Below the pieces are notes generated by a model. It saw only the letters and a program-made list of their open reading frames with translations. It did no database searches and was not told where the DNA came from. From assembly GCA_003426165.1 (NCBI GenBank), contig QUAH01000003.1:43525-107524 (forward strand): a stretch of 64,000 bases of DNA, read 5' to 3'. The translations under genes and the position numbers were made by a program. Origin of the DNA: Candidatus Saccharicenans subterraneus (GTDB lineage: Bacteria > Acidobacteriota > Aminicenantia > Aminicenantales > Saccharicenantaceae). Shown here piece after piece: positions 6,120 to 64,000 of the stretch; within the stretch, counting starts at the first letter, position 1; the number at the start of each line of letters is the position of its first letter.

Positions 6120-6131
6120 ATATTGCCGAAA

Positions 6132-6147: not shown

Positions 6148-6276
6148 CCAGGAGCCATGAACAGCACTAAATATTGTTTTTTCAGGCTTTTTTTCTGCCT
6201 GGGAAATAATAGCATAAAAGGGGCGCCTGGGGTTAGCGTGGAATCCGAAAAATTTTAGGTTTATAGGGAGGAAGGG

Positions 6277-44165: not shown

Positions 44166-44256
44166 GATTACCTCCACTAAAATATTTTACATCTTATCAA
44201 AAATCAGCCCGGCCATAAATTCATTTTTGCCGTGGAAATGATAAAATTAGACCGCC

Positions 44257-45231: not shown

Positions 45232-45370
45232 ACTGATAACAAAAAAGTTGTGGGGTCCAGACCCCGGCTTTGCTATAATCTGATTCTTTGAGCAAGACCA
45301 TGAAGAACGACCGATGCCGGGAGTCCGAGAGAGCCAATTGGTTCCGACCGGCATGCGGCCTCACGAAAGG

Positions 45371-46657
45371 ATGAACATGCGCTTCACCAATTTTCCAAGC
45401 TCCAAGCTTCTGGCGCCGGTAGCGGTGCTGTTATTACTCCTGCTTTTCCCGGCCTGCCGTCAGCCCAGGGTCGAAGTTTCGGCCACGGACTATGAGCTTC
45501 AGGCGCGGCAAATACACAAGAAAATCGTTACGGTTGATACCCACTGCGACACGGCCATGTGGCTGCTGCGGGGCAACTGGAATCCGGCCGAAAGACACGA
45601 CCCGGCTGCTCCCGGCAGCAGCAGGATTGACCTGCCCCGGATGAAAGAGGGCGGGCTGGACGCCGAGTTTTTTGCCGCCTTCGTCGGGCAGGGGCCCCGG
45701 ACGGAGGAAGGCTATGCCCAGGCCAGGAAGAGGACCGAAGAACTCATCCAGGCGGTCAGGAAAATGGTCGAAGTCAACCGTTCCATCATCGGGCTGGCCC
45801 TCAGCCCGGAAGAAGCTTATAGCCTGAAGAAACAGGGGAAATTGACCGCTTTCCTGGGAATAGAAAACGGCTATGCCATCGGGCGAGACCTAAGCCTGAT
45901 AAAGCATTTCTATGACCTCGGGGTTCGTTATATAACGCTATGTCACTCTTCTGATAACGATATCTGCGATTCTTCGACCGACAGGTCCGAACCTGAAGAC
46001 AAGGGATTGAGCGATTTCGGTCGCCAGGTGGTTCGGGAGTGCAACCGGGTGGGGATGATCGTGGATATCTCCCATGCCTCCGACCGTAGCTTCTATGATG
46101 TTCTTAAGACCAGCCAGGCTCCCATCATCGCCTCTCATTCCTGTGCCCGGGCTGTCTGTGACAATCCCAGGAACCTGACCGACGATATGATCAGGGCCCT
46201 GGCGGCCAGGGGCGGGGTGGTACAGATCTGTTTCCTTTCGGCCTACGTTAAAAAACCGCGGCCCAACCCGGAGAGGGATAAGGCCCTGGCCGAGTTCCGG
46301 GCCAAGTACGGCAACTGGCGGAACATCCAGGACGAGGACGAGCGCCGGAAGATAATGGAAGAGATGCAGGAGCTAAACCGCCGCTACCCGGCTGACCTGG
46401 CCACCGTCCGGGACCTGGTGGACCACATCGACCACGTGGTCAAGCTGGTCGGGGTGGATTACGTGGGTATCGGGACCGATTTTGACGGTGGCGGTGGGGT
46501 CCTCGGTTGCAACGACGTCAGCCAGATGATTAACGTCACAATTGAACTGCTGCGCCGGGGCTACAGCCAGAAGGACATAGAAAAAATCTGGGGTAAAAAT
46601 TTCTTCAGGGTTTTTAACCAGGTCCGTGAAGTGGCCAGAAAATTGAGCCAGTCCTGA
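45371..46657 (+). CDS. M19 family membrane dipeptidase (lipoprotein)
   Basis: 428 aa from the ATG at 45371. Lipobox-like LLLFPAC. HCDT, HSSDND and GTDFDGGGG motifs of renal-dipeptidase-type M19 enzymes. Confidence 0.8.
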   Translation: MNMRFTNFPSSKLLAPVAVLLLLLLFPACRQPRVEVSATDYELQARQIHKKIVTVDTHCDTAMWLLRGNWNPAERHDPAAPGSSRIDLPRMKEGGLDAEFFAAFVGQGPRTEEGYAQARKRTEELIQAVRKMVEVNRSIIGLALSPEEAYSLKKQGKLTAFLGIENGYAIGRDLSLIKHFYDLGVRYITLCHSSDNDICDSSTDRSEPEDKGLSDFGRQVVRECNRVGMIVDISHASDRSFYDVLKTSQAPIIASHSCARAVCDNPRNLTDDMIRALAARGGVVQICFLSAYVKKPRPNPERDKALAEFRAKYGNWRNIQDEDERRKIMEEMQELNRRYPADLATVRDLVDHIDHVVKLVGVDYVGIGTDFDGGGGVLGCNDVSQMINVTIELLRRGYSQKDIEKIWGKNFFRVFNQVREVARKLSQS

Positions 46658-46768
46658 AAACGGTCCGGCTGGTAGAGGTTAAAGCCTGGCTGGAACGGCT
46701 GGCGGTAACCGCTCCACCTGCTGTTGGCGGGTGATTTTAGGGAAAGTTTAAGCTATTATTAATAAGCA

Positions 46769-48385
46769 ATGGAATTTTCTGTGAGGACTTCCGGGCGGCG
46801 AGCGGGCCTGGTCGTTTCCCTGGCCCTGGCTGCCATGCTGGTCCTGGGCCTGTTCCTGGGTGCTTCCGTCCAGGAAGAGACCCCCAGGCCCAAGCCAGGG
46901 GGAGAACTAAGGGTCAGGCCTTATGGTTCAGCTTTGAATACCGACCTGGACCCGGCCGGAAACGGTTATTCCCTGGTGGTGGGAAATCTTTACGAAGGCC
47001 TGGTCAGGCTGGACCAGAACCTGAACGTCGTTCCCGGCCTGGCTGACTACTGGTCGGTCTCTGAAAACGGCCGGAAAGTTACCTTCTACCTCAGGAAGCA
47101 AGCTGTCTTTCATAATGGACAGGCGGTTACCGCCTCCGATGTCAAGTTTTCTTACCAAAGGCTATTCCAGCTGAAGAGCCGGCCTGTCTTTTATGAGTTT
47201 GCCAGCAGGATCGAGGGGGGAGAGGAATTCTGGCGGGGGGCCGCTTCCGAGGTCAGCGGGCTCAGGGTGGTGGATGATAAGGTCCTGGAGATTTACTGGA
47301 AGCAACCGGGCGTTACCAATTTCTACTTCCTGGCAGCTGGCTTCGCCGGGATTCTCCCGGCCGGCCCGGTTCAGTCTCAGAAAAAAAGATTTTTTGACAG
47401 GCCGGTTGGAGCCGGCCCCTTCAAGTTCGATTACTGGCTGCGGGACAGGCGCCTTAACATCATCGGCGTCAGGCTGGTCAGGAATGATAATTATTTTACC
47501 AGGAAACCGTTCCTGGAAGCGGTCGAGGTCAGTCCTTTTTTCCAGCTGGATGATTTCCTTCAGAACGAAATCCAGGTTATTCCCTACCTGACCTTCAGGA
47601 TATCCAGGGATAAGTACCAGATCCTGGAAAGCAACCTGCTCCAGCTGAATTATCTCTTCTTCAGCTGCCACCTGCCACCCTTTGACCGGCCAGAAGTCCG
47701 CCGGGCCCTGCAGGCCTTTGTTGAAAAAAGACAGCTGGCCGGGCTGGCTTCGACCACGGCCAATTTTTGCCAGCCGATGGACAGCTTTATCCCTCCTTTC
47801 CTTCCCGGTTTTATGCCTGAAGGCGCCTGGCCGGAACAGAGCCTGAGCCAGGTGTTGAAAGTCCTGGAAGAGGCGGGACTTGGCCGGGTGGACCGGCCCC
47901 TGGTGGTCAATGCCTATTTCCAGGTAACCAATAAAGACCTCATCCCGAGCATCTATGAGTTCTTGAGAGAGGAGCTAAGACCGGCCGGGATTAAACTGGA
48001 GCTGAAGTCAAATTATTCGGCCGAGGAGCTGGCCAGGGACAACACCCCGTTCATTTTTTTCCTGGAATGGAGCCCCGAACTGCCCGACCCGGAATTCATT
48101 CTCCGGCCGCTGTTTCATTCCGCCGGTTCTGCGAACCGGGAGCTATTTCATTACCGGAACCCGAAGGTTGACGAACTCCTGGAACTTCAGAAGAACGGCC
48201 TGAGCTTTGAGCGCCGGGTTAACCTCTTCAGGGAAATCGAGAAGATTCTGCAGGCTGATACCCCGGCCCTGCCTCTCTTTTTCCATAAGCAGAGGCTGGC
48301 CTACCAGCCCTATCTTAAGAACCTGAAAGCCCAGCCTCAGGGCCTGCTCTGCCTGAATCTCCGGGATGTCTGGATGGACCGATGA
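46769..48385 (+). CDS. extracellular solute-binding protein, family 5 (peptide/nickel/opine type)
   Basis: 538 aa with a signal peptide and a family-5 SBP fold pattern. No ABC permease or ATPase genes are adjacent. It is translationally coupled to the histidine kinase. Confidence 0.65.
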   Translation: MEFSVRTSGRRAGLVVSLALAAMLVLGLFLGASVQEETPRPKPGGELRVRPYGSALNTDLDPAGNGYSLVVGNLYEGLVRLDQNLNVVPGLADYWSVSENGRKVTFYLRKQAVFHNGQAVTASDVKFSYQRLFQLKSRPVFYEFASRIEGGEEFWRGAASEVSGLRVVDDKVLEIYWKQPGVTNFYFLAAGFAGILPAGPVQSQKKRFFDRPVGAGPFKFDYWLRDRRLNIIGVRLVRNDNYFTRKPFLEAVEVSPFFQLDDFLQNEIQVIPYLTFRISRDKYQILESNLLQLNYLFFSCHLPPFDRPEVRRALQAFVEKRQLAGLASTTANFCQPMDSFIPPFLPGFMPEGAWPEQSLSQVLKVLEEAGLGRVDRPLVVNAYFQVTNKDLIPSIYEFLREELRPAGIKLELKSNYSAEELARDNTPFIFFLEWSPELPDPEFILRPLFHSAGSANRELFHYRNPKVDELLELQKNGLSFERRVNLFREIEKILQADTPALPLFFHKQRLAYQPYLKNLKAQPQGLLCLNLRDVWMDR

Positions 48386-49866
48386 TCAGAATTCCCAGAC
48401 CGCGAATTTCCATCTACGTCCAGCTGGTCTTCTGGACTTCGGTTATCATTCTGCTTTTGATGTTCGGGGTCCTGTACGTAATCCAGACCAGGGAAGTTAA
48501 GGCCATTTACCAGGAGAAGAGGGAGCGCGGCCTGGTTATGGTCAGGTACATTTCCGAGATGAATGTCAGGAGCCTGGTGCTCGGAGACCTGGAGTCCATA
48601 GATGAAAACATTTCGGGATTGATCAGGGAAGACCTGGCCTACGTAATTTTTTACGATGCCGACAGCAAGCCGGTCGTGGTCAGCGAGAGCATTGCCGACA
48701 ATGCCGAGGTGATCAACCAGACCAGCTGTGCCGGCGAGGTGTCCCCAGGCGACGTTTTTTATAACACCATCAGGTTGAACCGTGGCCGGAGCTTTCAGGA
48801 AGTGATGGAGGTCGAGGTCCCGGTTTTCGTTCCCGGTTCCGAGAAAAAGTGGGGTTCGGTTAAAATCGGCTTGAAACTGGAAGACGTTTTCCGCCGGGTC
48901 CAGAGAACCCGGCTGGTGCTCCTGGGCTTCGGGCTGGCTGCCTTTCTGCTGACGGTGCTCGGGGCCAACCTGCTGGCCAGGAGGATTACCCGGCCCATCA
49001 AGAACCTGGTCGAAGGTACACGTCGAATTTCCCGGGGGGATTTTAGCTACCGGATTCCGGTTATCTCCAGGGATGAAATCGGAGACCTGACCCGCAGCTT
49101 CAACCAGATGGCCGAGGAATTGCTCCGGGCCCGGGAGCAGATGGAAGAGGCCAACCGGCGCCTGCTCCAGGCCGAGAAACTGGCCTCCATCGGCCGGCTT
49201 TCGGCCACCATCGCCCACGAAATCCGCAACCCGCTGACCTCGGTTAAGTTAAACATCCAGAAGCTGGCCGAGATATCGACCCTGGATGAGCTGGAGAGAG
49301 AGCACCTGGCCATTGCCCAGGCCGGCATCGAGCAGATCGAGAAGTTCATCAAGGACTTGCTGAGCTACACCCGGGCCTCCAGCCTTCAGAAGGATTATTT
49401 TTCGCTGGCCGAAGTCCTGGACGAATCTCTGAAATTGTTGCAGCCTTCCCTGAAGGAAAAAGAAATCGTGGTGGAAAAGGACTACCAGCCGGACTTGCCG
49501 CCGGCCTACGTCGATGCCGACCGGCTGCGCCAGGTCTTCTTAAATGTTCTTCGCAATGCCTACGAGGCGGTGGACCAGGGAGGCAGGATAGAAATTTCTC
49601 TCCGGATGAACCGGGCAGAAGACGGTTCCTGTTTCGAGGTCCGGATCAGCGACAATGGCTGTGGCATTCAGGAGAAGGACCGGGAAAATATCTTTGAACC
49701 ATTCTTCACCACCAAGAGTTCCGGGGCCGGCCTGGGGCTGGCCAACGCCCGCCGGATCCTGGACCAGCACGGGGGCACCATCCGGGTAGTTGATAAAGAG
49801 GGACGGGGTAGCTGTTTTCTGATCATTCTGCCCTGTCCGGAAAGCAAGCAGGAGGCTCAGACATGA
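48382..49866 (+). CDS. sensor histidine kinase (2 TM, HAMP, HisKA, HATPase)
   Basis: H-box SIGRLSATIAHEIRNPL and GxGxG ATPase motifs. ATGA overlap with the SBP gene. Confidence 0.85.
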   Translation: MIRIPRPRISIYVQLVFWTSVIILLLMFGVLYVIQTREVKAIYQEKRERGLVMVRYISEMNVRSLVLGDLESIDENISGLIREDLAYVIFYDADSKPVVVSESIADNAEVINQTSCAGEVSPGDVFYNTIRLNRGRSFQEVMEVEVPVFVPGSEKKWGSVKIGLKLEDVFRRVQRTRLVLLGFGLAAFLLTVLGANLLARRITRPIKNLVEGTRRISRGDFSYRIPVISRDEIGDLTRSFNQMAEELLRAREQMEEANRRLLQAEKLASIGRLSATIAHEIRNPLTSVKLNIQKLAEISTLDELEREHLAIAQAGIEQIEKFIKDLLSYTRASSLQKDYFSLAEVLDESLKLLQPSLKEKEIVVEKDYQPDLPPAYVDADRLRQVFLNVLRNAYEAVDQGGRIEISLRMNRAEDGSCFEVRISDNGCGIQEKDRENIFEPFFTTKSSGAGLGLANARRILDQHGGTIRVVDKEGRGSCFLIILPCPESKQEAQT

Positions 49867-51227
49867 CCAGAGTTCTGGTAATAGAGGATGATTCCTTGGT
49901 CAGCCGGACCATCGCCACGCATCTCCGGAAAAAAGGCTTCGAGCTGAAGCTGGCCGAGACCGGCGAGGAAGGGTTGAAGCTCTACAAAGATTTTCAACCG
50001 GACTTAACCCTGCTGGACGTCAAGCTGCCCGACATCAATGGCCTGGAGGTGCTCAGGCAGATCAGGCAGACCAGCAAGAACGCGGCCGTGGTGGTGATGA
50101 CCGCCTTTGACGATATGAAAACCACGGTGGAAGCCATCAAGGCCGGGGCCTTTGAATACCTGGTGAAGCCGCTGGACTACCTGGAGCTGGACCTGACCAT
50201 CGACAAGGCCTTCCAGCTCAAGGCGCTGGAAGAAAAGGTCAGCTACCTGATCGAAGAAAAGCAAAAGGAATACCAGATAGACAACATCATCGGTCGGTCT
50301 CCCCAGATGCGGGAGGTCTTCAAGATGATAGGCTCGGTGGCCAATACCAGGACCAACGTCCTGATCCAGGGAGAGAGCGGGACCGGCAAGGAGCTGGTGG
50401 CCAAGGCCATCCATTACAACAGCCCCTTCCGGGATGAGCCCTTCATCGTCATTAACTGCTCGGCCATTTCCGATACCCTGCTGGAGTCAGAGCTCTTCGG
50501 CCATGTCAAGGGAGCTTTTACCGACGCCGTCAGCGAGACCCGCGGCAAGTTTGAGATCGCCGGCAAGGGAACGCTGTTCCTGGATGAAATCGGGGACATC
50601 TCTCCCAACCTCCAGTCCAAGCTCCTCCGGGTCATAGAAACCAGGGATTTCATGAAGGTTGGAGGCGAGAAGATATTGAAGACCGAGGCCAGGATAATTG
50701 CCGCCACCAACCAGAACCTTAAGGAGCTGGTCAGCCAGGGCAAGTTCCGGGAAGACCTGTACTACCGTCTCAAGGTGGTGGAGATAACCCTGCCGCCGCT
50801 CCGGGACAGGCGCGAGGACATTCCCGAGCTGGTGGCCTACCTGCTGGAAAAGATAAACCGGGAGTTGAAGAAAAATGTCAGGAAAGTTCCACCCGAAGTC
50901 ATGGACTATCTGGTCAACCAGCCCTGGAAGGGTAATGTCCGGGAACTGGAGAATGCCCTGACCAGGGCCGTCATCCTGGCCAAGGGAGATGTCATTCTGA
51001 AAGAACACCTGCCTTTTGAGCCGGCCCCTCAGGCCCAGGCCCAGGACAGGTTTCAGCTGCCCAAGGAAATGGTGCCGCTTTGGGAAATAGAGAAAAGGTA
51101 CATCCAGTATGTGCTGGAAGCCACGCGGGGCAGCAAGACCAGGGCCTGCCAGATACTGGAAATCAGCCGGCCAACCCTCGATAAAAAAATCAAGGATTAC
51201 GACCTCAAGGTGGAAACCTCGGAGTGA
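49863..51227 (+). CDS. sigma-54-dependent response regulator (NtrC family: REC, AAA+, HTH)
   Basis: GESGTGKE Walker A, the GAFTDA motif (GAFTGA-type sigma-54 contact), and C-terminal Fis-type HTH. ATGA overlap with the kinase gene. Confidence 0.9.
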   Translation: MTRVLVIEDDSLVSRTIATHLRKKGFELKLAETGEEGLKLYKDFQPDLTLLDVKLPDINGLEVLRQIRQTSKNAAVVVMTAFDDMKTTVEAIKAGAFEYLVKPLDYLELDLTIDKAFQLKALEEKVSYLIEEKQKEYQIDNIIGRSPQMREVFKMIGSVANTRTNVLIQGESGTGKELVAKAIHYNSPFRDEPFIVINCSAISDTLLESELFGHVKGAFTDAVSETRGKFEIAGKGTLFLDEIGDISPNLQSKLLRVIETRDFMKVGGEKILKTEARIIAATNQNLKELVSQGKFREDLYYRLKVVEITLPPLRDRREDIPELVAYLLEKINRELKKNVRKVPPEVMDYLVNQPWKGNVRELENALTRAVILAKGDVILKEHLPFEPAPQAQAQDRFQLPKEMVPLWEIEKRYIQYVLEATRGSKTRACQILEISRPTLDKKIKDYDLKVETSE

Positions 51228-51350
51228 TGGGGTCTGGCCTGCTCCCAGTCCTCCTGTAAAAAAAATTAACAGGCTGCAAAGTTTATTGGGGGAAGGGGCG
51301 ATAGTTCTCGGGGTGGCTGTCCTGGTTTCCCCTGAAATTTTTTCGATTTC

Positions 51351-51366
51351 TGGCACGAAACCTGCT
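51351..51366 (+). promoter_or_regulatory. sigma-54-type promoter TGGCAC-N5-CTGCT upstream of the orphan receiver gene
   Basis: GG at 51352-53 and GC at 51364-65 have the correct 10-nt separation. The predicted TSS is about 13 nt before the ATG at 51390. Confidence 0.45.
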
Positions 51367-51389
51367 CTCTACCGGGAACAGGTAGTATC

Positions 51390-51749
51390 ATGCTGGATAA
51401 GAAAATAGTTATAGTTGATGACGATGAATCCATAAGAAAGACCTTTTTTCTGCTTCTTTCCGATAAATACAATGTTTACCTGGCCGGGGATGCCGGGGAA
51501 GCCCTGGCCAGGTTTGAAAAAGCCCCGGTTGATATGATCATAGCCGATCTCCGGCTTCCCCAGAAAAATGGTCTCCAGATGATTGTCGATTTCAGGCGAT
51601 CGGGTTACCAGGGGCGCATCATACTAATTTCTGCCTGTGCTGACCAGGTCAAGCCGGAGGACCTGGAAAAACTGGGTGTGGACCGGCTGTTCATAAAACC
51701 CCTGGACCTCAAGTTACTGACCGACACCATCGACAGCCTGCTGGCCTGA
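51390..51749 (+). CDS. single-domain response regulator (REC only)
   Basis: 119 aa with the phospho-acceptor pocket VDDDESIR...IIADLRLP. Confidence 0.8.
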   Translation: MLDKKIVIVDDDESIRKTFFLLLSDKYNVYLAGDAGEALARFEKAPVDMIIADLRLPQKNGLQMIVDFRRSGYQGRIILISACADQVKPEDLEKLGVDRLFIKPLDLKLLTDTIDSLLA

Positions 51750-53894: not shown

Positions 53895-54073
53895 TTAATT
53901 CTTCTTCTCCGGGCTGACTATCTGTCAATCATTAAATGATAGAAATGTCCCCAAGTCAAAGGGCACAAAGCCCCTCGTGAAGGCCAACCGGTTTCACCGA
54001 CAGTTTTGATTGCATGGAGCCCGCAATTTTATTAAACTCAGTCTGCGATAAATATTTGCCGAGGAAAGCTGAC

Positions 54074-55414
54074 ATGGTGAAAAAGGCTCTATTCATGGCA
54101 GTTCTGGTCGGTCTGCTGCTGGCTCTGATGGCCCAGGCGCAGGCTCCGGCTGGCTATTCTGCGGCCGAGTTCGAGAAACGCCGGCTGGCCCTGATGGAGG
54201 CTACCGGAAACGGGCTGATCATTCTATTGGCCAGCCCGGGAAACACGGGGGCCGGGCATTTCCGCCAGGACAACGATTTCTATTATTTTACCGGTTGCGA
54301 GGATGCCAACGCCATCCTGGTCATGATTCCGGCCACCAAGGACAGTTATCTTTTTGTTCCCCAGAAAACCGACCGGGAAAAGATGATGGAGGGCGGGAAC
54401 AGCCTGGATGACCCGGGGGCCAGGGAAAAGCTCAAGCTGAAGGCAATCTACCCGGTCAGCTATTTTGACGAGTTTCTCTCCAGGCTATCCGGTCGCCAGG
54501 ACCAGGTTATCTATTTGAGGCTATCGCCCGAGGACTCGGTTGGAGAAGCCCGTTCGGAAACCGCCCTGTTTCAGGCCCGGCGCGCGCGGAATCCCTACAA
54601 CGCCCAGCTCAGCCTGAATCAGTTCCGGGCCGAGAGGTTTCGCCAGCTTTATCCCGCGGCCGAGCTGAAAGATATCACTCCCCGGATTGATGTCCTGCGG
54701 ATGATTAAGACCCCGGAAGAAATTGCCATCCTAAGGCAAAACGGTCGGATTTCAGCCGAAGCCGTGAAAAGGGCCATGCTGGCTTCGAGGCCGGGAGCCT
54801 TCGAGTACGAACTGGAAGCGGCCGCGGTGGAAGTCCTGCTCAGGAACGGCTGCCGGGGGCCGGCCTATCCGCCCATCATTGGCTCTGGACCGAATACCTG
54901 CATTCTGCATTATGAAAAAAATAACCGGGCCATGCAGGCCGGTGAACTGGTACTGATGGACTTCGGCGGCGACCTCAATTACCTGACGATGGACATTACC
55001 AGGACCTGGCCGGTTTCCGGCAAGTTCAGCGAAGAGCAAAAAAAGGTTTACCGGGCTGTGCTGGAAGTGCAGAAGGCCTGCATTGAGGCTTTTAAGCCGG
55101 GAGTTACCGGTCGGGATGTTCAGGAGTACGTGGCCAGGAGGATGAAAGAAAGGGGAATTGACCCGCTGGGCCTGCGCGGTGGCCTGGGTCACCTGGTGGG
55201 CATGTCCGTGCATGATGTCCAGTCTCCGGAGCTGGTTCTCCAGGAAGGCATGGTCATGGCCATCGAGCCAGGGCTCTATTATCCCGAGAAAAACCTGGGC
55301 ATCAGGATTGAAGACACCGTACTGATAACCAGGGACGGCTGCGAGGTACTGACGGCCGGAGTTCCCAAAGAAATCGATGAAATTGAAGCCCTGCTGGCCA
55401 GGAGAAAGTTCTGA
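54074..55414 (+). CDS. Xaa-Pro aminopeptidase (M24B, PepP-like), secreted
   Basis: 447 aa from the ATG at 54074. Signal peptide. M24 metal-ligand pattern (MDFGG, HLVGMSVHD, EPGLY..IRIED). Confidence 0.8.
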   Translation: MVKKALFMAVLVGLLLALMAQAQAPAGYSAAEFEKRRLALMEATGNGLIILLASPGNTGAGHFRQDNDFYYFTGCEDANAILVMIPATKDSYLFVPQKTDREKMMEGGNSLDDPGAREKLKLKAIYPVSYFDEFLSRLSGRQDQVIYLRLSPEDSVGEARSETALFQARRARNPYNAQLSLNQFRAERFRQLYPAAELKDITPRIDVLRMIKTPEEIAILRQNGRISAEAVKRAMLASRPGAFEYELEAAAVEVLLRNGCRGPAYPPIIGSGPNTCILHYEKNNRAMQAGELVLMDFGGDLNYLTMDITRTWPVSGKFSEEQKKVYRAVLEVQKACIEAFKPGVTGRDVQEYVARRMKERGIDPLGLRGGLGHLVGMSVHDVQSPELVLQEGMVMAIEPGLYYPEKNLGIRIEDTVLITRDGCEVLTAGVPKEIDEIEALLARRKF

Positions 55415-55475: not shown

Positions 55476-56711
55476 ATGTTGCACCAGGCTGGCCTGATTG
55501 CTCCATTCTCTCTGCTCATCTTAATAATTTACCTGTCTGTTGAAGCCGTTCATTTTCGCCGCCGGCTGAAGAAAATTCCCGTGAGGATAGCTGTCGGCGG
55601 CATCAGGGGAAAGTCCAGCATAACCAGGCTGATCGCCTGGGGGCTGCGGCAGGCCGGGTTGAAGGTGATGGCCAAGACTACCGGTTCCAGGCCGGTTCTG
55701 ATCTATCCCGATGGACACGAGCAGGAAATCAGCCGGCGGGGCCGGCCGACCATCCTGGAGCAGAAGAAGCTGGTGGAGGTGGCTGCGGCCGCAGAGTCGG
55801 ATTTCCTGGTCAGCGAGATGATGAGCATTCAGCCCGAATGCCTTGGAGCCGAGGGGCGGCATCTTTTGCGACCACAGGTCCTGGTGCTTAGCAATTTCCG
55901 GCCTGACCATACTGAATTTCTCGGGAGGCACAGGGAGGAGGTGGCCCGGGCCCTGCTGGAAGCGGTTCCTGCGGGCACCATCGTTTTTATTCCCGAAGAA
56001 GAATTCCAGCCCTGGATGGGGAACCTGGCCCGGGAAAAAGGATTTGAGCTGATGGCGGTCAGGAGCAGTATCGAATCTGCCCGCCTGACCGAGATTCTTC
56101 CATACCCGGAATTTGAGCCAAATGCCAGGCTGGCCCTGGCCGTCCTGCAGCATTTTGGCCTGTCGGCCGAGCGAGTCCAGGACGGCTGGTCTGGTTTGAA
56201 CCCAGACCTTGGCCGGCCCAGGGTCTGGCGAGTCAGAGTGTCGGGGAAACATCACTTTCACCTGGTCAGCCTGTTTGCGGCCAACGACCCGGAGTCAAGC
56301 CTGCTGGCCATGGAGCTAATAACCAGAAGGCTGGGCTGGCAGGAAGCCCGTAAAATCGGGCTGCTGAGCCTGCGGGCTGACCGCGGCGACCGGAGCCGGC
56401 AATGGGTTGAGTTCCTTCAGTCGGGGGCGGCAGACTTCCTGGAATCACTGATTCTAATCGGACCGGGAGCCAGGGCAGTGGGCCGAAAACTCAGAAACTG
56501 GTCCCGGAAAACTGGCCGCCCGCTATTAATTCTGCCTGAGAGGGAACCGGAGAAGGGTCTTGAAGAAATAAAAAAACTGGTTGCCGACTGCCAGAAAAGA
56601 CTGCCCGGCGCGGAAGAGAGATGCCTGGTCTTCGGGCTGGGCAACATTGGCGGCTTCGGCCGCAAACTTATAGAATACCTGGAAAGGACCGCCGATGCCG
56701 TCAGAATATAG
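55476..56711 (+). CDS. pgsB: poly-gamma-glutamate synthase, Mur-ligase-like subunit
   Basis: 411 aa. PVRIAVGGIRGKSSITRL...AKTTGS...GRPTILEQKK lines up residue by residue with Bacillus CapB/PgsB (PVRVNINGIRGKSTVTRL...GKTTGT...NIGEQKE). C-terminal VFGLGNIGGFG matches IYGVGNIHGAA. Confidence 0.85.
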   Translation: MLHQAGLIAPFSLLILIIYLSVEAVHFRRRLKKIPVRIAVGGIRGKSSITRLIAWGLRQAGLKVMAKTTGSRPVLIYPDGHEQEISRRGRPTILEQKKLVEVAAAAESDFLVSEMMSIQPECLGAEGRHLLRPQVLVLSNFRPDHTEFLGRHREEVARALLEAVPAGTIVFIPEEEFQPWMGNLAREKGFELMAVRSSIESARLTEILPYPEFEPNARLALAVLQHFGLSAERVQDGWSGLNPDLGRPRVWRVRVSGKHHFHLVSLFAANDPESSLLAMELITRRLGWQEARKIGLLSLRADRGDRSRQWVEFLQSGAADFLESLILIGPGARAVGRKLRNWSRKTGRPLLILPEREPEKGLEEIKKLVADCQKRLPGAEERCLVFGLGNIGGFGRKLIEYLERTADAVRI

Positions 56712-57129
56712 TTCCCTTTTTCTCGGCCTGGTGCTGGCTCTTATTTTCAGCGAGCTAACCGGGATTTCACCCGGGGGACTGATAGTTCCCGGCTATTTCG
56801 CCCTTTACCTGGACCAGCCCTGGCGCCCGCTGGCCACCCTGGCCGTGGCTTTCCTGGCCCTCGGCCTCTACCGCCTGGCCGGCAATTACCTCATCCTTTT
56901 CGGCCGGCGTCGCTTTGTCTTCATGATTCTGGTGGGAGTGGTCCTGGCCCAGCTCTGGAACCTGCTGCTGCCGGGGTCGCTGGCCGAGCCGATTTCGCTC
57001 AGGGTCATTGGCTGGGTGGTGCCCGGGCTCCTGGCTTCCAACCTGGAGAGGCAGAAGATTCTGCCGACCCTGGCTTCCTTGATTCTTGTTTCTGTCTTAA
57101 CTTTTCTTCTGGTCGGGCTCTTTTTCTGA
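56695..57129 (+). CDS. pgsC: poly-gamma-glutamate biosynthesis membrane protein PgsC/CapC
   Basis: 144 aa. LIFSELTGISPGGLIVPGYFALYLDQP, ILFGRRRF and IGWVVPGLLASNLERQ match CapC blocks. 17-nt overlap with pgsB. Confidence 0.8.
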   Translation: MPSEYSSLFLGLVLALIFSELTGISPGGLIVPGYFALYLDQPWRPLATLAVAFLALGLYRLAGNYLILFGRRRFVFMILVGVVLAQLWNLLLPGSLAEPISLRVIGWVVPGLLASNLERQKILPTLASLILVSVLTFLLVGLFF

Positions 57130-58247
57130 TGGGCAACGGAAAAAAACTTTTCACCCTGGTCGGCCTGGCCGTCCTCAGCCTGGTCTTTCTTGGCCTCTAC
57201 CTCGGTCTTGGCCAGGATGTCAACCGCTGGTCGAGGCCTGACCCGGAGGGAATGGAGGCCGCCCGGTTGATGTCAGAAGCCCAAAAAATCATCTTTAACT
57301 GCCGGAAAAGCAGAGGAATTCAGCCCGAAAATAATGAGTTCGACCCCAATCAAACGGGTTTAATCGGCCTGGAAAACAGCCCCCTGACCACCACTCTCGG
57401 CAATCTCCAGGCCAAGAGAACCGCCACCAACCCGGAGCTGGCCGCTCTCCTGGTCCACCTGCTCAGAAAGGCAGGAGTGAAGAGGGGAGAGGTGGTGGCC
57501 CTCGGCGCCTCAGCTTCTTTTCCTTCCCTGGTTGTCGCCAGTTATTGTGCCGCCCGGGCCCTGGACCTGGAACTTCTGGCGATTGTTTCGGTTGGGGCTT
57601 CCCAGTGGGGGGCCAACCACCCGGAATTTTCCTGGCTGGACATGGAAGACTGCCTTCGCCAGCACGGGTTCACCCGGCACCGGCTGCTGGCCGTGGCCTG
57701 GGGCGGTGAAGACGATTCCGGGAAAGAGTATCCGGAAGAAGTAAAAAAACGGCTTCAGGCCTTGGCCCGAAAGCTCGACCTTCAATTTCTCCCGGCCGGG
57801 AGCCTGGAGGACAGGGTCAGGCAGCACCTGGACCTTTTTCTGGCCGCAGCCGGTCAGAGCAAAATAAAGGCGTTCATCAATATCGGCGGCAGCTCGGTCA
57901 ACCTCGGGGCTGACTCTTCTGTCCTGGAACTTCAACCGGGATTGACCGGGGTTAGAAAAATTCCACCGGCGCCAAGACGGGGTCTTATCCAGGAGATGGC
58001 CCGGCGAGGAATTCCAGTTATCCACCTTCTGAACATCAGAAAGCTGGCGGAAATTTATGGACTTCCCTGGGACCCGAAGCCGTTACCGCCAGCCGGCGCC
58101 CCTGGTTTCGAGCCGGAAAAAAGAATGGATAAGACCACGGCCAGGTTGATTTTTGGCGGTTATGTTCTCAGCTGTGTGCTCTGGCTGACGGTAGCAGGAA
58201 TTATTCGTAAAAGAGCCTTCCGGCCGGCGCCAGGTCGGGATTCTTAA
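57129..58247 (+). CDS. membrane-anchored poly-gamma-glutamate system accessory protein (non-CapA third subunit)
   Basis: 372 aa with N- and C-terminal TM helices. 1-nt overlap with pgsC. No metallophosphatase (CapA) motifs. The call rests on context; it may belong to the poly-gamma-glutamate system protein family (from memory, a TIGRFAM such as TIGR04332). Confidence 0.45.
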   Translation: MGNGKKLFTLVGLAVLSLVFLGLYLGLGQDVNRWSRPDPEGMEAARLMSEAQKIIFNCRKSRGIQPENNEFDPNQTGLIGLENSPLTTTLGNLQAKRTATNPELAALLVHLLRKAGVKRGEVVALGASASFPSLVVASYCAARALDLELLAIVSVGASQWGANHPEFSWLDMEDCLRQHGFTRHRLLAVAWGGEDDSGKEYPEEVKKRLQALARKLDLQFLPAGSLEDRVRQHLDLFLAAAGQSKIKAFINIGGSSVNLGADSSVLELQPGLTGVRKIPPAPRRGLIQEMARRGIPVIHLLNIRKLAEIYGLPWDPKPLPPAGAPGFEPEKRMDKTTARLIFGGYVLSCVLWLTVAGIIRKRAFRPAPGRDS

Positions 58248-59376
58248 GGTAGAAGCCGGTTCCCCTGGCAATAACTTCGGCGTAGCGTGGAACATTTTCC
58301 ATCTGGATTGGCCGCTCGGGGTGGAGTTCGGTCCAGACCTTGAAAATCTGGATGATCGAGGACAGGTGGCGGCCTACCCGGACGTCTATCGGCCAGCCGT
58401 TCTCATCCAGCTTTTCAAACAGCAGGCCGTGGCGGCCGGCCTTCATCACGAATTCATCCTTTCCGGTCAGAAGAAGGGCCCGGTCGGTCCGGCCCCGGGT
58501 GGCATCCAGGAAGGGTTCTGGCGTCTCCAGCAGAAGGGGGATGGCCTGGGTGTGGTCGCCTATTTCCCGGTGGGACAGGCCGCGCAGCGCCACCGGGGAG
58601 TATTCAACCCCGATGTTGAAACCCTCCTCGCCGCTGATCATCATCGAGGCCAGGGCGGCCAGGTCTTCACCCTTCTGGTGGGCCACGATGGTGCTGATCA
58701 CCGGGTACTGCAGCTCGGCCTCGTGCAGGTCGATGACCAGGTCGATCTTTTCCTTGATTATCAACTGGGTCATGGCATAGCAGGTCTTCTCGGTCATGGT
58801 GCCGTCGGGACGTCCGGGCCAGGTGCGGTTCTGGTTCCTGATATCCATGTAGGCCAGCTGCTGTCTGGAAGGATAATGAATGTAGACCTCGGGGTCAGGC
58901 CACTGGTCGAGCGGGTTGGACCAGCGGTCACCCTGCCTGAATTTCTGTCGGCCCCAGGGCGTTGGTATTTCGTAATCGGGAGGATAGGCCCCGCCAGGCC
59001 TGGTGGAGGTAGAAGCGCTGGGATTGGCTGACAGGATGACAAAGAGGCGCCCCCTTTCTAACCTGGCGTTTTCCACCAGCAGCCAGGCGGCCAGGCGACC
59101 GGCCGGCTCTTCCGCATGGGAACCACCCAGGACCAGGGCGGCCCCGTCAGCAGAACCGGTAGTTCCCTTCCCCAGGATGTAAACGCTGGCATCGTTGATG
59201 CGGCCTCTCAGGCCAGGAAAGTAGTGGCTGAGCTTTCTAACTTCCAGAAGTCCATCGCCAGCCACCACCGGCTCTTTCAGGTGCCGGCTCCGGTAAAAGC
59301 TCAGGCCAGAGAACAGAAAAACCAGCAAGAAAGCCGCCGTGAAAATCGCTTTTCGCCTGATGAGTTGGTTTTTCAT
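58201..59376 (-). CDS. M14-like zinc hydrolase of the succinylglutamate-desuccinylase/aspartoacylase (AstE/AspA) type, secreted
   Basis: 391 aa. N-terminal anchor. GGSHAEEPAG (HxxE Zn ligands) and LVIDLHEAE (third His). GAGG RBS. Its 3' end overlaps the converging gene by 47 nt. Confidence 0.5.
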   Translation of the reverse strand: MKNQLIRRKAIFTAAFLLVFLFSGLSFYRSRHLKEPVVAGDGLLEVRKLSHYFPGLRGRINDASVYILGKGTTGSADGAALVLGGSHAEEPAGRLAAWLLVENARLERGRLFVILSANPSASTSTRPGGAYPPDYEIPTPWGRQKFRQGDRWSNPLDQWPDPEVYIHYPSRQQLAYMDIRNQNRTWPGRPDGTMTEKTCYAMTQLIIKEKIDLVIDLHEAELQYPVISTIVAHQKGEDLAALASMMISGEEGFNIGVEYSPVALRGLSHREIGDHTQAIPLLLETPEPFLDATRGRTDRALLLTGKDEFVMKAGRHGLLFEKLDENGWPIDVRVGRHLSSIIQIFKVWTELHPERPIQMENVPRYAEVIARGTGFYLKNPDLAPAGRLFYE

Positions 59377-59383
59377 GCAGACC

Positions 59384-59539
59384 TCATTTCAACCGGAAAA
59401 GGCGCAGGAGAAACGGCAACAGGACTATCAGGTAAAGAACCTCGCTCTGCCAGTTCCTGGACCGCCTGAAGTTCCATATAAAGCAGGCGGCGAAAAAAGC
59501 CACCATCAGGTAATAGAGAAATGTGATGAAAGCGGCCAT
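59384..59539 (-). CDS. 51-aa hydrophobic micro-protein (single/double TM)
   Basis: My own translation: MAAFITFLYYLMVAFFAACFIWNFRRSRNWQSEVLYLIVLLPFLLRLFRLK. GGAGACAGGA RBS. Not in the ORF track (under 60 aa). Lies between the permease and the M14 genes. Confidence 0.35.
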   Translation of the reverse strand: MAAFITFLYYLMVAFFAACFIWNFRRSRNWQSEVLYLIVLLPFLLRLFRLK

Positions 59540-59548
59540 TCCTGTCTC

Positions 59549-60841
59549 CTAAAAAAGCGTCAGGAAAGAAAGTTTCTTGCTGAAAATAACCATCAGCGTT
59601 CCCAGCAGGGCGATGATGGCAGCCGGGACCAGGCACATCTTCAGGAAAGTCGAGTAACGCTCTTTGACTCCGACTGTATCCATGGTCAGGCGCCCGATGA
59701 TGGCCGTTGGGGGCAGGGCATCGCCCAGCGGCCAGATAATACTCATCCCGGCCAGGGCTACCACCGGGTCCAGCCCCCGTGTGTTAAAGAGGAGGACCAG
59801 GGGCACTCCCAGGACCGGGGCCGCTCCCCACATCAACACGGCTTCGGACAGGGGAAGGGTCAGGAAAAGAGAGGCAATGACCACGGCTGCCGGCAGGGTG
59901 ACGACGGAAACCGAGATTAAACCCCTGACCCCGGTTAAGGTCATGACCTGGACCAGGACTCCCACGCAGGTCAGGGTGCCCACCAGGGGCAGCAGCTGTT
60001 CGGCCGTGGCCAGTGAGGTCTTCCATATGTTCAACCTGACCGGAGAAACCAGGACGGCCACAACCGCGGTCAGGGCAAAAATCAACGGCAGGCCCAGGAT
60101 GGGGAAGCTGAACGGAAAAATCCTTCCGGCCAGGACCAGGACCAGGAAGGCGGCAAAGGGCAGTCCCAGCCGCCACCAGTTCATCCTTTCGGGCGGAACC
60201 GGAAGTTCGGCCAGGGCTTTTTCGAGGTCGACCGGCCTGGCCTTGCGGCCCAGGATAAATATGGTCAACAGAGCTCCGAGGACACAGGGGATAAGAAGCG
60301 GCAGAAAAAAGCCAACGTAGGGCATGTTGATGCCGGCCGCGGTCAGCATGGCCCACAGGCTGACCGGCGGGGCCGCGGCGCTGAGTCCGGCTATCAAAAA
60401 AATGATGGCGGCCACCCTGACTTCACTCAGGCCGGTGTATTTCAGGACCACGGCCACCAGCGAGCCAGTTATCAGGACGGTGACGCTGCCGGCACCGGTC
60501 AGGGCACCTGGAATTAACAGCAAGAAAACCAGGAGCAAAAAGAGCATGAACCGGCGGCGATGAAATTTTTTCAGGATGGCCCGGACGGCAAAGGCCACTC
60601 CTCCGGCTTCTTTCAGCAGGTTCATGAACAGCGTGGCCGTCAGGAAGATCAGGCAGATGTCCAGGTAGGTGATGGCCCCCTCGGCCAGGTGCCGGACCGG
60701 AAGTCCATAGCCCCCGGCCAGGGCTCCGGCCACCGCGGCCAGGAACAACGATAGTTCGGTGGAGACCTTTAATATTTTGGCCAGCGCGTAAGCGGCCACC
60801 ATTACCGACAGGATGAGAAGAGCGCTCTGGGTTGGGGACAC
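59549..60841 (-). CDS. DctM-like (TRAP-type large permease family) membrane transporter
   Basis: 430 aa with 12+ TM segments. The GG..FAV.....GAGSV......AAAPPVS pattern resembles DctM. GTG start with an AAGGAG RBS. No DctP or DctQ gene is nearby. Confidence 0.45.
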   Translation of the reverse strand: MSPTQSALLILSVMVAAYALAKILKVSTELSLFLAAVAGALAGGYGLPVRHLAEGAITYLDICLIFLTATLFMNLLKEAGGVAFAVRAILKKFHRRRFMLFLLLVFLLLIPGALTGAGSVTVLITGSLVAVVLKYTGLSEVRVAAIIFLIAGLSAAAPPVSLWAMLTAAGINMPYVGFFLPLLIPCVLGALLTIFILGRKARPVDLEKALAELPVPPERMNWWRLGLPFAAFLVLVLAGRIFPFSFPILGLPLIFALTAVVAVLVSPVRLNIWKTSLATAEQLLPLVGTLTCVGVLVQVMTLTGVRGLISVSVVTLPAAVVIASLFLTLPLSEAVLMWGAAPVLGVPLVLLFNTRGLDPVVALAGMSIIWPLGDALPPTAIIGRLTMDTVGVKERYSTFLKMCLVPAAIIALLGTLMVIFSKKLSFLTLF

Positions 60842-60866
60842 TCCTGGTTATCTCCTTCCGGCCCGG

Positions 60867-61478
60867 TTAATATCTCCGGCTGTCGACGATGATCCTGGAA
60901 ATGGCATTGTAGCTCTGCAGGGTGTTTTTCTGCTGGAAAAGGGCTCTTTCCACGATCAGGGTTCCGAGGGGATAGTCGTCCCAGCGGTAAATCCCCACGT
61001 CGGTTTGATTCCCGGTTATGGTCACCAGTTCTTTTGCTCCATGACTGACCCTGGGCAGCTTGAGCTGGTCGAGTACCAGGTTCAGTGATTCCGGGTCTTC
61101 TATGGTGAAGGTCCGGCCGTTGGGGTCCATGACCAGCTTGAGCTCGGGCGGAGCGGGCACAGTTGAGTTGCGGTCCAGCTGGTCGCCGCTGATGAAGGTG
61201 TAGATTGTCCGGTGCGAGTAAATGGTATCCGACTCGGAAACGGTATAGTAATATTCGGGAATGTTGGGCGGGAAGAGGTCGTTCTTGATGGCCTTGAAGC
61301 TCAGGACCGTCAATCTGGTGGTCTGGAGATAGCCCAGGATTATTCCCAGCAGGACAATGAAGACGATGGTGCGGACCAGGCTTTCGGTATGGCCCCGGAA
61401 CAGGATGTAAATCAGCCAGATGACATTGATGGCCAGAAGGGCGGTTACAATGTTGATGGCCAGTGAAGTGGAAATCAT
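60867..61478 (-). CDS. hypothetical membrane protein (2 N-terminal TM plus extracytoplasmic domain)
   Basis: 203 aa. RBS GAGGCAGGTGA. First gene of the minus-strand operon. Confidence 0.45.
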   Translation of the reverse strand: MISTSLAINIVTALLAINVIWLIYILFRGHTESLVRTIVFIVLLGIILGYLQTTRLTVLSFKAIKNDLFPPNIPEYYYTVSESDTIYSHRTIYTFISGDQLDRNSTVPAPPELKLVMDPNGRTFTIEDPESLNLVLDQLKLPRVSHGAKELVTITGNQTDVGIYRWDDYPLGTLIVERALFQQKNTLQSYNAISRIIVDSRRY

Positions 61479-61630: not shown

Positions 61631-63712
61631 ATGAAAAAACATCTGGCGGCCCTGCTGGTTCTGTTGTTCCTGGTTTCGGCAGCCCTGGCCCAGCCCCAGG
61701 AAAAGCTGCCGAGAACTCTGCTGTCGCTCAGGTTGCTCCAGGATATTATCAACGAGGCCAACGGAGAGCTGGCCCTGCAGAATGAAATCTATCTCACTGC
61801 GGTCAACCGCAACCGGAAAGCCGAAGAGTACGCCACCGGCTATTTTGAGACCGGGTTCATCCTGGAAAAACTCAAAGAGTACGGCTACGATGAAGCCCAG
61901 GTCCTGGAGCTGCCCTCCCGCGACCAGACCGTCTGGGATGCCGAGGAAGCCGAGCTGTGGATGGTGGAGCCGGTAAAAAAGAAGATTGCTGACCTCAAAG
62001 AAATTCCAGCGGTCCTCTGCTCGGGCAGCGCCTCGACTGACGTAACAGCCGAGCTGGTGGAAGTGGGGCCCGGCTTCAGCGAGGACCACTATAAAAACAA
62101 GGATGTTAAAGGAAAGATTGTTCTCGTCTACGGCTCTCCTGAGGCGGCCAGGCGCCTGGCCGTGGAAAAATTCGGGGCGGTCGGCCTTATCGGCTGCTCT
62201 TCCAGCCACCCGGAATTTGACAGGGATCAAATTGGCTGGAGTTCCATCAGGGTTGGACCCAAGGACAAGCCGACCTTCGCCTTCATGGTGTCGGAGAGAA
62301 CATATTTTGACCTGAAGATGGCCCTGGAAAGGAAAACCAGGATTGTGCTCAGGGCCCTGGTCAAGACCCAGCGGGTTCCGGCCAGGGAAGAGATGGCCGT
62401 CGGGTTGATAAAAGGAGCGGAAAAACCGGAAGAAGAACTGGTCCTGACCGCACATCTTTTTGAAGGCTATGCCAAGCAGGGGGCCAACGATGATGCTTCA
62501 GGCTGCGTGGCCATCCTGGAGGCCGGTCGGGTTCTTAAGAAGATGATGGCCGACGGGACCATCCCGCCGCTTAAAAGGTCAGTTCGCTTTCTCTTCGTTC
62601 CGGAGATTTCGGGCACCAGGGCCTATATCCAGAAATATCCTGAGGTAGCCCGCCGGTTTTTTGCCAACATCAACGAAGACATGGTGGGTGAGGCCCTGGT
62701 CAAGAACCTGAGCGCCTTCCGCCTTGAAGTCACTCCATATTCTCTGCCAACTTACCTCAACGACGTGGTAGCCTCTTTCGTCGAGTGGATGGGGGCCAGC
62801 CAGCGCATTTCCCAGGACGGGGGCTGGAAGGAACTGGCCGTTCTCTCGCCGGCCGGAAGCCGCGACCCCTTCTATTATTCCATCGACCCCTATTCCGGCG
62901 GCAGCGACCATATCGTTTTCATAGACGGAGCGGTTAAAGTTCCGGCCGTGATGTTCATCTGCTGGCCGGACATGTGGTACCACACCAGCGGCGACCTGCC
63001 CGATAAATCCGACTCCACCCAGCTAAAGAGAGTGGTCACACTGACCGTGGCTTCGGCTATTTTCCTGGCCAACGCCGGTCCGGAAGAAGCCCGGGCCATC
63101 CTGAACGAAGTCAGTGCCAGGAGCCTGGGACGCCTTGGCCGGGAAAAAGGTCGGGCCATCGAGATGATCATGAAGGCCGAGAGTAAGGGCCTGGCTGCGG
63201 CCAGGAAAGAAGCGGTTAATATTCTGCGGCAGGCGGTCGCCCGGGAAAAAGAAGCCCTGGAGTCGGCCAGGTTTTTCGCCGGGAACGATCGCCAATTTAC
63301 CTCCCTGCTGGCGGCCAAGCTTAACACCCTGGACCAGTTCCAGGTGGCCGGGCTCAATGAACTGGAGGAGCTGTACCGGCAGGGCTGCCAGCGGCATGGC
63401 CTGAAACCGGAAAAGCTGACCCTGACCCCTGATGAAGTGAGGTTGAGCCGGGTGGTCCCGGTCAGAAAACCGGCGGCCGGCGAAGGCGATCCCTGGATGG
63501 TGCTCATGAGACTGAGGGAAATGAACCTTCAGCTCTCGCCGCTGATTTACCGGGCGGAGTTTGAACTGCGCAATTTTATAGACGGGAAAAAATCCATACT
63601 CGATATCCGTAATGCGGCTTCAGCCGAGTACGACCCGCTTCCTCTGCTGGACGTGGAAAAATATTTCCAGGCCCTGGAAAAGGCCGGAATGGTGGAACTT
63701 AAAAAGAAGTAG
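61631..63712 (+). CDS. M28 family metallopeptidase with PA domain and C-terminal extension
   Basis: 693 aa. Signal peptide. NDDASGCVAILEAGR Zn-ligand block. AAGGAG RBS. Confidence 0.75.
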   Translation: MKKHLAALLVLLFLVSAALAQPQEKLPRTLLSLRLLQDIINEANGELALQNEIYLTAVNRNRKAEEYATGYFETGFILEKLKEYGYDEAQVLELPSRDQTVWDAEEAELWMVEPVKKKIADLKEIPAVLCSGSASTDVTAELVEVGPGFSEDHYKNKDVKGKIVLVYGSPEAARRLAVEKFGAVGLIGCSSSHPEFDRDQIGWSSIRVGPKDKPTFAFMVSERTYFDLKMALERKTRIVLRALVKTQRVPAREEMAVGLIKGAEKPEEELVLTAHLFEGYAKQGANDDASGCVAILEAGRVLKKMMADGTIPPLKRSVRFLFVPEISGTRAYIQKYPEVARRFFANINEDMVGEALVKNLSAFRLEVTPYSLPTYLNDVVASFVEWMGASQRISQDGGWKELAVLSPAGSRDPFYYSIDPYSGGSDHIVFIDGAVKVPAVMFICWPDMWYHTSGDLPDKSDSTQLKRVVTLTVASAIFLANAGPEEARAILNEVSARSLGRLGREKGRAIEMIMKAESKGLAAARKEAVNILRQAVAREKEALESARFFAGNDRQFTSLLAAKLNTLDQFQVAGLNELEELYRQGCQRHGLKPEKLTLTPDEVRLSRVVPVRKPAAGEGDPWMVLMRLREMNLQLSPLIYRAEFELRNFIDGKKSILDIRNAASAEYDPLPLLDVEKYFQALEKAGMVELKKK

Positions 63713-63782: not shown

Positions 63783-64000
63783 TTATTTGCCGTAAATCTT
63801 GCGCAGTTCCTCCACCAGGTCCATATTTTTTTCTACTTCGACCAATGGTATGTTCTTGCTCCTGGCTATGGTGGTGAAACGACCGTCGGAGTTGCCCTCC
63901 TTGTTGACCAGGAGAAGGTCCGACTGGGGAGCCACGGCGTCGATGCTTTGCTCATCGGTGGTGTCGCCGGCCGCTGCTCCCTGGGCTCTTCTCTTCATTC
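63783..64000 (-). CDS. 3' end of an unidentified gene (start beyond window end)
   Basis: Open frame ending ...NIPLVEVEKNMDLVEELRKIYGK stop at 63783 and continuing past 64000. Function not recognised. Confidence 0.35.
   Translation of the reverse strand, partial: MKRRAQGAAAGDTTDEQSIDAVAPQSDLLLVNKEGNSDGRFTTIARSKNIPLVEVEKNMDLVEELRKIYGK

Follow-up and report, generated by a model that had tools for sequence, protein, structure and literature searches.

A poly-gamma-glutamate synthase locus without CapA and its conserved accessory genes, including an M14-fold hydrolase, in Candidatus Saccharicenans subterraneus

Introduction

Knowledge of poly-gamma-glutamate (PGA) biology rests almost entirely on Bacillus. 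That a PGA hydrolase gene can lie next to the PGA synthase operon is well established, examples being B. subtilis pgdS and B. anthracis capD (PMC4928254). The capA gene of Francisella carries the annotation 'poly-gamma-glutamate system protein', and capBCA is needed for virulence (PMC5362203, PMC4688374). A preprint on PGA in Cloacimonadota describes CapA-type loci only. Here we analyse a PGA-type synthase locus without CapA, together with the genes that converge on it, in a 64,000-nucleotide stretch of Candidatus Saccharicenans subterraneus (contig QUAH01000003.1, positions 43,525 to 107,524), hereafter the window.

The synthase core of this locus is already known, and its third subunit is a family that NCBI already curates. 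The locus departs from the classical PGA loci in that third subunit, in its hydrolase family and in having a transporter and a DUF6305 protein. Our literature search found no paper on DUF6305 or the other accessory families, on TIGR04332, or linking an AstE-like (succinylglutamate desuccinylase) gene to pgsB, and the extended, phylum-spanning cassette appears to be undescribed as a whole.

Results

The synthase genes and a converging operon belong to one conserved system

The segment 54014-64000 of the window carries ten genes, and the open reading frames (ORFs) of the locus lie at the coordinates given in the initial annotation. The synthase and accessory genes are listed here, with dN/dS denoting the ratio of non-synonymous to synonymous substitution rates and aa denoting amino acids; the two flanking peptidase genes follow in the section on neighbouring genes.

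55476-56711, plus strand: pgsB, membrane-anchored ATP-dependent amide ligase of Mur-ligase fold (TIGR04012; PF08245 Mur_ligase_M)
56695-57129, plus strand: pgsC, small integral-membrane subunit (TIGR04011; PF14102)
57129-58247, plus strand: TIGR04332 'poly-gamma-glutamate system protein', 372 aa (by TIGR04332 score)
58201-58247, both strands: 47-bp overlap of the 3' ends of two convergent genes (two stop codons)
58201-59376, minus strand: M14-fold zinc hydrolase, 391 aa, with N-terminal membrane anchor; distinct AstE/AspA-like subfamily
59384-59539, minus strand: hydrophobic peptide, 51 aa (67 orthologues, dN/dS)
59549-60841, minus strand: permease, 430 aa, ion-transporter superfamily, divergent DctM/CitMHS-like
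60867-61478, minus strand: membrane protein, 203 aa (31 orthologues; Aminicenantes-type loci only among those surveyed)
63783-64000, minus strand: DUF6305 protein, C-terminal 71 codons and stop; the gene leaves the window at its end

The synthase genes are tightly packed, with a 17-bp overlap between pgsB and pgsC and a TIGR04332 gene whose start overlaps the pgsC stop. The four minus-strand genes for the 203-aa protein, permease, 51-aa peptide and hydrolase are spaced 7-25 bp apart and form the operon that the initial annotation described as converging on the synthase genes. The two stop codons fix the 47-bp convergent overlap, and tblastn matches to the hydrolase and TIGR04332 genes overlap or abut in the closest relatives too (for example by 41 bp in locus L006). 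Promoter and terminator scanning was uninformative.

Linkage between the two gene sets was assessed by a hydrolase-centred scan of a collection holding one genome per species, using a profile built from a six-sequence alignment. The scan returned at least 575 stretches encoding hydrolase relatives, of which the best 80 loci, all at least 61% identical, were kept; linkage was counted in the 38 of these with at least 6 kb on both sides, and pgs genes were sought within 10 kb. The complete set of pgsB, pgsC and TIGR04332 was present in 36 of the 38 loci, the permease in all 38, DUF6305 in 37, the peptide of about 50 aa in 34, and a C69 dipeptidase in 11. The layout was convergent like that of the window in 28 loci, and in eight it formed a co-directional run in the order pgsB, pgsC, TIGR04332, DUF6305, permease, peptide, hydrolase, C69.

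The pairing extends well beyond close relatives. Single look-ups of the contexts of distant relatives showed that even at 33-39% identity the hydrolase keeps its linkage to pgs genes (L004, L085 and L087), and in other phyla the two gene sets, at 29-43% protein identity, again occur together in one co-directional cluster. TIGR04332-centred look-ups in Fusobacterium (L089) and Treponema sp. OMZ 805 (L091) revealed, on one strand, genes for gamma-glutamyltransferase (GGT), DUF6305, the permease, a 48-aa peptide, the hydrolase, PgsB, PgsC and TIGR04332. The same gene set occurs in other orders in L092, L093 and L004, two metagenomic contigs being among the loci with this set. In Fusobacterium, Treponema and other lineages the genes form one co-directional cluster, which often begins with GGT or has C69 dipeptidases instead. 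The Fusobacterium GGT passes the TIGR00066 cut-off, and PgsB there scores 472 bits.

Because the same gene set recurs across several phyla, the PGA synthase and the hydrolase, permease, peptide and DUF6305 genes constitute one conserved system of several bacterial phyla. The functional coupling of the converging operon to the synthase, suggested by the initial annotation from the window's letters, is strongly supported by the pairing of both sets in nearly all the loci counted and by their co-directional arrangement next to GGT in Fusobacterium, Treponema and other lineages. The module had been drawn too small: its core and accessory genes stand, and it also includes the DUF6305 gene at the window end.

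The synthase core consists of PgsB, PgsC and a TIGR04332 protein

PgsB scored 253.9 bits against the NCBIfam TIGR04012 equivalog model (cut-off 222.7), compared with 18.5 bits for folC and about 15 bits for cyanophycin synthetase, so that membership of another Mur-ligase subfamily, the outcome that would have overturned the assignment, did not emerge. Its translation contains a Mur-ligase nucleotide-binding domain (PF08245, E 1.7e-07) with the P-loop motif GGIRGKSS. The gene directly after pgsB encodes PgsC, at 129.4 bits against TIGR04011 (cut-off 96.45) and 124.6 bits against PF14102 (E 3.7e-36). Both genes, described at the outset as clearly recognisable, therefore exceed curated cut-offs, and by homology PgsB would make gamma-linked polyglutamate.

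The third protein, whose gene adjoins pgsB and pgsC, reached 324.5 bits against TIGR04332 (cut-off 100), and public records likewise name its homologues 'poly-gamma-glutamate system protein'. It gave no Pfam match even at E 10, so it carries no CapA/PGA_cap metallophosphatase domain, in agreement with the earlier view that the third subunit is not CapA. In the predicted structure a Rossmann-like domain is flanked by a single helix at either terminus, and its fold matches generic Rossmann proteins only. A vague likeness between TIGR04332 and DUF6305 was rejected at a profile-profile probability of 1.8%.

As a separate observation, L085 encodes at 1478-6208 a 1576-aa protein in which a complete TIGR04332 domain, C-terminal membrane helix included, is joined to a regulator of Y_Y_Y/Reg_prop, PAS and GerE type. 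This fusion suggests that transcription control can be coupled directly to the third subunit.

The hydrolase represents a distinct M14-fold family with a complete active site

The window hydrolase belongs to a small, distinct family of 573 cluster representatives (E up to 0.001). Its earlier classification as an M14, AstE/AspA-like zinc hydrolase was upheld because its family matches AstE_AspA_cat (PF24827): 27 of 29 full-length relatives do so at E <=0.01, the best at 1.9e-13. The predicted fold is M14, a carboxypeptidase-like alpha/beta fold, and Foldseek agrees on the family. Grouping with aspartoacylases of unrelated context, which had been named as grounds for abandoning the proposal, was not observed.

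The best PDB sequence matches have E of about 1e-5, and the motifs align with DoeB and 2qj8. An alignment of 29 sequences shows no variation at H87, E90, R151, R184, H218 and E284 and almost none at N183. We equate these positions with carboxypeptidase A residues, namely those that bind zinc, the Arg and Asn-Arg that grip a free alpha-carboxylate, and the catalytic Glu; judged by these motifs, the hydrolase has a complete carboxypeptidase-A-type active site. Structural comparison of the predicted model gave figures of 22.2 for Csd4, the closest solved fold, 17-19 for classical M14 carboxypeptidases, 18.1 for DoeB, 16.6 for CCP5, 15.7 for CphZ and 13.2 for MpaA. The protein additionally carries about 50 inserted residues, at roughly 120-175, and an N-terminal membrane helix, a topology that probably places the catalytic domain outside the cytoplasm.

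These features bear on the likely substrate. In gamma-PGA, an amide at each unit joins a gamma-carboxyl group to the amine of a residue whose alpha-carboxylate is free. This bond is of the type cut by Csd4, MpaA and CCP5 and is chemically near N-succinyl-glutamate, the AstE substrate; Csd4, which cuts a gamma-D-glutamyl bond, and MpaA are M14-type gamma-D-Glu-meso-diaminopimelate (mDAP) peptidases. Since the alpha-carboxylate-binding residues are kept and every gamma-PGA unit offers such a group, the hydrolase would be suited to gamma-glutamyl bonds.

The comparison with PghP-type gamma-glutamyl hydrolases made in the initial annotation did not survive. In PghP and PghL, Arg127, Asn144 and Arg145 of carboxypeptidase A are replaced by His, Thr and Ser (PMC6506827). 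The window hydrolase retains the corresponding R151 and N183-R184; it gave no match to PF05908 (PghP) at E up to 10, and none was found among the 29 relatives.

Two loci carry a second, diverged hydrolase gene. L004 has two M14-like copies in one cluster (3246-4355 and 5133-6242). In L087 (1077-2276 and 6674-7843), one copy overlaps the end of the TIGR04332 gene and lies in the same operon.

The permease, small peptide and DUF6305 complete the cassette

Among 20 permease orthologues, six match DctM (PF06808; best E 2.3e-08) and four match CitMHS, and the protein is therefore classed as a divergent carrier of the ion-transporter superfamily. The family supports the earlier label of DctM-like permease; the window protein itself falls below the DctM gathering score. 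Profile searches of the PDB with the permease and with DUF6305 returned no relative of solved structure, and neither the 51-aa peptide nor DUF6305 matches the DctQ or DctP model.

The 51-aa ORF is a real gene, as shown by 67 orthologues of matching length (about 50 aa), an almost invariant C-terminal PFLLRLFRLK and dN/dS of 0.05-0.11. It always lies directly downstream of the permease gene, with lengths of 47-57 aa in Fusobacterium, Treponema and other loci, and the peptide is probably a permease subunit. The 203-aa protein is likewise under purifying selection (dN/dS 0.07-0.14) and has a conserved YRWDDY motif in an alignment of 31 orthologues; it gave no Pfam or NCBIfam match. Comparison gave no support for a relation between this protein and DUF6305, and a 171-aa gene product of L085 showed no relation to either.

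The translation of 63783-64000 equals the C-terminus of the DUF6305 protein of L006, a 96%-identical relative, at all but two positions, so the cassette extends beyond the coordinates first assigned to it and off the window. DUF6305 proteins are about 170 aa long and have a signal peptide. Fusion proteins were also found that join an M14-like domain to DUF6305 (P0177) or to a weak C69 match (E 3e-4, below the Pfam cut-off). Because of the N-terminal hydrolase helix, the terminal TIGR04332 helices and the DUF6305 signal peptide, the non-ligase parts of the system are expected to lie outside the cytoplasm. NCBIfam holds no family for the permease, the peptide or DUF6305, and for the hydrolase it gave only a weak DoeB match; the same was true of the Fusobacterium copies.

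Neighbouring peptidases and other window genes

The peptidase genes on either side of the cassette are as follows.

54014-55414, plus strand: secreted Xaa-Pro aminopeptidase, M24B (PepP; PF00557 and PF05195)
61631-63712, plus strand: M28 peptidase, 693 aa, with a weak PA-domain match (PF04389)

PepP and the M28 peptidase do adjoin the locus as described, whereas the M19 dipeptidase, originally counted as a third flanking peptidase, lies about 9 kb away (45314-46657). The PepP gene is 61 bp upstream of pgsB and stands next to pgsB in only six of the 38 loci. Its ORF start is probably placed too early, since a typical signal peptide, MVKKALFMAVLVGLLLALMAQAQA, begins at Met residue 21.

The M28 peptidase (PF04389, E 9.1e-16) lies between the DUF6305 and 203-aa genes in the window lineage and occupies the same position in 18 of the 38 loci; its membership of the system is uncertain. 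A glutamate carboxypeptidase II-like identity was rejected, because a PDB sequence search returned only bacterial M28 aminopeptidases (nearest 2ek8 and 6hc6). In Aminicenantes-type loci, M28 peptidases of large size (about 700-780 aa) are found repeatedly next to pgs genes (window 61631-63712, plus strand; L001 8429-10762; L094 3561-5774); they are mutually about 26% identical and adjoin a CBM9/DUF5916 protein in L001 and L094.

In a 70%-identical relative, C69 dipeptidase and DUF1847 genes are inserted between the hydrolase and TIGR04332 genes (L001 4599-5264 and L002 4920-5585, both minus strand), which makes the convergent junction a place where genes have been gained. Further upstream, 45314-51749 (plus strand) encodes the M19 membrane dipeptidase and then an SBP_bac_5 protein, a HAMP histidine kinase, what is probably an NtrC-type response regulator (judged by its translation alone) and a 119-aa ORF resembling a single-domain receiver. 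These genes, about 4-9 kb before pgsB, may form a regulatory unit that senses peptides. The ORFs at 41691-44177 (minus strand, 828 aa) and 44257-45231 (plus strand, 324 aa) gave no Pfam match at E up to 1e-4.

Discussion

We favour, with moderate confidence, a reading in which PGA synthesis is coupled to cleavage of gamma-glutamyl bonds outside the cytoplasm and to import of what is released. PgsB would act as an ATP-dependent ligase at the membrane, its ligase domain facing the cytoplasm, and together with PgsC and the TIGR04332 protein would polymerise glutamate through gamma-amide bonds and pass the chain out of the cytoplasm. The membrane-anchored M14-fold hydrolase would then cut the exported polymer with secreted DUF6305 as a partner, and the permease with its 51-aa subunit would import the glutamate, or the short gamma-glutamyl peptides, set free in this way. 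Where GGT or C69 dipeptidases are encoded in the same cluster, these would complete the breakdown. Of the module of synthesis plus turnover and uptake first suggested, the linkage is established, whereas turnover and uptake are the best available inference.

Several points weigh against this reading. The window hydrolase scores 20.1 bits against AstE_AspA_cat, under the gathering score of 25, and the window permease scores 16.8 bits against DctM, under the gathering score of 23.8. A PghP-type identity, with its known PGA-degrading association, had to be given up. Two of the 38 hydrolase loci have no pgs genes within 10 kb, and the TIGR04332 locus L094 has no accessory genes within 7 kb, only an M28 peptidase beside the core. 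The window contains no GGT or C69 gene. The Francisella capBCA genes are reported as not involved in capsule production, their function being called unknown (PMC5362203, PMC4688374). The cargo of the permease and its direction of transport are assigned by inference, neither being readable from sequence, and the functions of the four accessory families are proposals.

The main rival, possible although we lean against it, holds that the accessory genes serve production: the hydrolase would trim, release or size the nascent chain in the manner of PgdS or CapD, DUF6305 would help to handle the polymer, and the permease would import glutamate for synthesis. The accessory genes do lie within the pgsBC operon, upstream of pgsBC, in Fusobacterium and Treponema, and the second hydrolase copy of L087 comes immediately after TIGR04332. 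CapD, the GGT homologue of B. anthracis, anchors and releases the capsule rather than feeding the cell, which also counts for a role in production. The occurrence of C69 and GGT genes in the same clusters, however, suggests full breakdown to glutamate. The two readings do not exclude each other, and a production role may exist alongside recycling.

It is doubtful that the product is some other gamma-glutamylated molecule, rather than free PGA homopolymer, on which the hydrolase, GGT and transporter would act. The window PgsB exceeds its cut-off by just 31 bits, and the reports that place Francisella capB and capC outside capsule production would fit such a product. Yet the Fusobacterium locus of the same architecture has a PgsB well above the cut-off, and F. 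nucleatum is reported as a PGA producer (Candela et al. 2009, as cited in PMC3815933 and PMC4928254).

Recycling of cell-wall peptides (gamma-D-Glu-mDAP, as by Csd4 and MpaA) by a hydrolase and permease that merely happen to lie near pgs genes is very unlikely: Csd4 is the best structural match and MpaA matches too, but in 36 of 38 loci, and across phyla, the genes are linked to pgsB, pgsC and TIGR04332, the partners are GGT and C69, and murein genes are absent. Chance adjacency of unrelated operons, which the opposite strands of the two gene sets in the window might suggest, has a negligible probability and is refuted by the synteny survey, in which the pairing recurs co-directionally at 29-43% identity in other phyla.

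Within the favoured reading of synthesis coupled to hydrolysis and uptake, we tentatively raise a more specific and less probable proposal: a self-contained extracytoplasmic PGA cycle of double-membraned bacteria, in which the polymer would be kept in or near the periplasm, trimmed by the new M14 subfamily with DUF6305 and re-imported by a new two-part transporter, and would be, instead of a capsule, a reserve of glutamate, charge or osmotic kind that the cell manages. If true, this cycle would assign functions to four unnamed families at once and would give a testable reason for a virulence role of Francisella capBCA without a capsule role.

The CapA-less system brings its own hydrolase, transporter and two unknown proteins, and the set is conserved in environmental Aminicenantes and as far afield as species of Fusobacterium and Treponema. 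For the control of PGA chain length it supplies a new candidate class of gamma-glutamyl hydrolase, and it provides candidate functions for four families to which NCBIfam gives no curated name: the M14 subfamily, DUF6305, the permease and the peptide of about 50 aa. Work in Fusobacterium is tractable and could clarify the unexplained role of the related Francisella cap locus.

Comparison with known systems

The hydrolase shares with Csd4 and MpaA only 16% identity and differs from them in genomic context and in its membrane anchor; it is also without the extra C-terminal domains that Csd4 possesses. Like AstE, aspartoacylase, DoeB and CphZ (PF24827), it has an HxxE...H zinc site, an N-x-N-R-x-(F/W/Y)-P-G motif and a catalytic Glu; AstE-type enzymes hydrolyse N-acyl amino acids, and CphZ acts in the breakdown of an amino-acid polymer, as proposed for the window hydrolase. 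Unlike that family, it falls below the Pfam threshold, has the insertion of about 50 residues and a membrane anchor, and belongs to a small family of its own. With PghP and PghL it shares a zinc enzyme's carboxypeptidase-A-like metal site and the same proposed substrate, whereas it has about 390 aa instead of about 200 aa, no PF05908 match, and the Arg and Asn-Arg residues retained.

The transport genes recall TRAP (tripartite ATP-independent periplasmic) transporters (DctPQM): the large membrane subunit is a distant relative of DctM, it has a small membrane partner, and a gene for a secreted protein accompanies them. They differ from TRAP systems in that the small partner has about 50 aa, DctQ being several times larger, in that DUF6305 (about 170 aa) shows no relation to DctP, and in that the DctM match of the window protein is under the gathering score.

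By curated models, PgsB and PgsC are orthologues of those in the pgsBCAE-pgdS and B. anthracis capBCADE loci of Bacillus. As in those loci, a gene for a candidate gamma-glutamyl-bond-cleaving enzyme stands beside the synthase, and there is a gene for a peptide of about 50 aa, the likeness of the latter being one of size. In contrast to the Bacillus loci, CapA/PgsA is absent and the third-gene position is held by TIGR04332 with its Rossmann-like fold; the hydrolase is an M14-fold zinc enzyme, whereas PgdS is of NlpC/P60 type; and no CapD-family (GGT) gene is present in the window, as it is in B. anthracis, although one occurs in Fusobacterium, Treponema and other clusters. The cassette furthermore adds the permease and DUF6305, and its small peptide follows the permease rather than the synthase.

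The TIGR04332-type loci of Fusobacterium and, by annotation, Francisella capBCA have a three-gene core identical in kind to that of the window. Fusobacterium L089 has the window's accessory genes too, but arranged as one co-directional cluster starting with GGT, whereas the window locus is convergent, has no GGT and carries the lineage-specific 203-aa and M28 genes.

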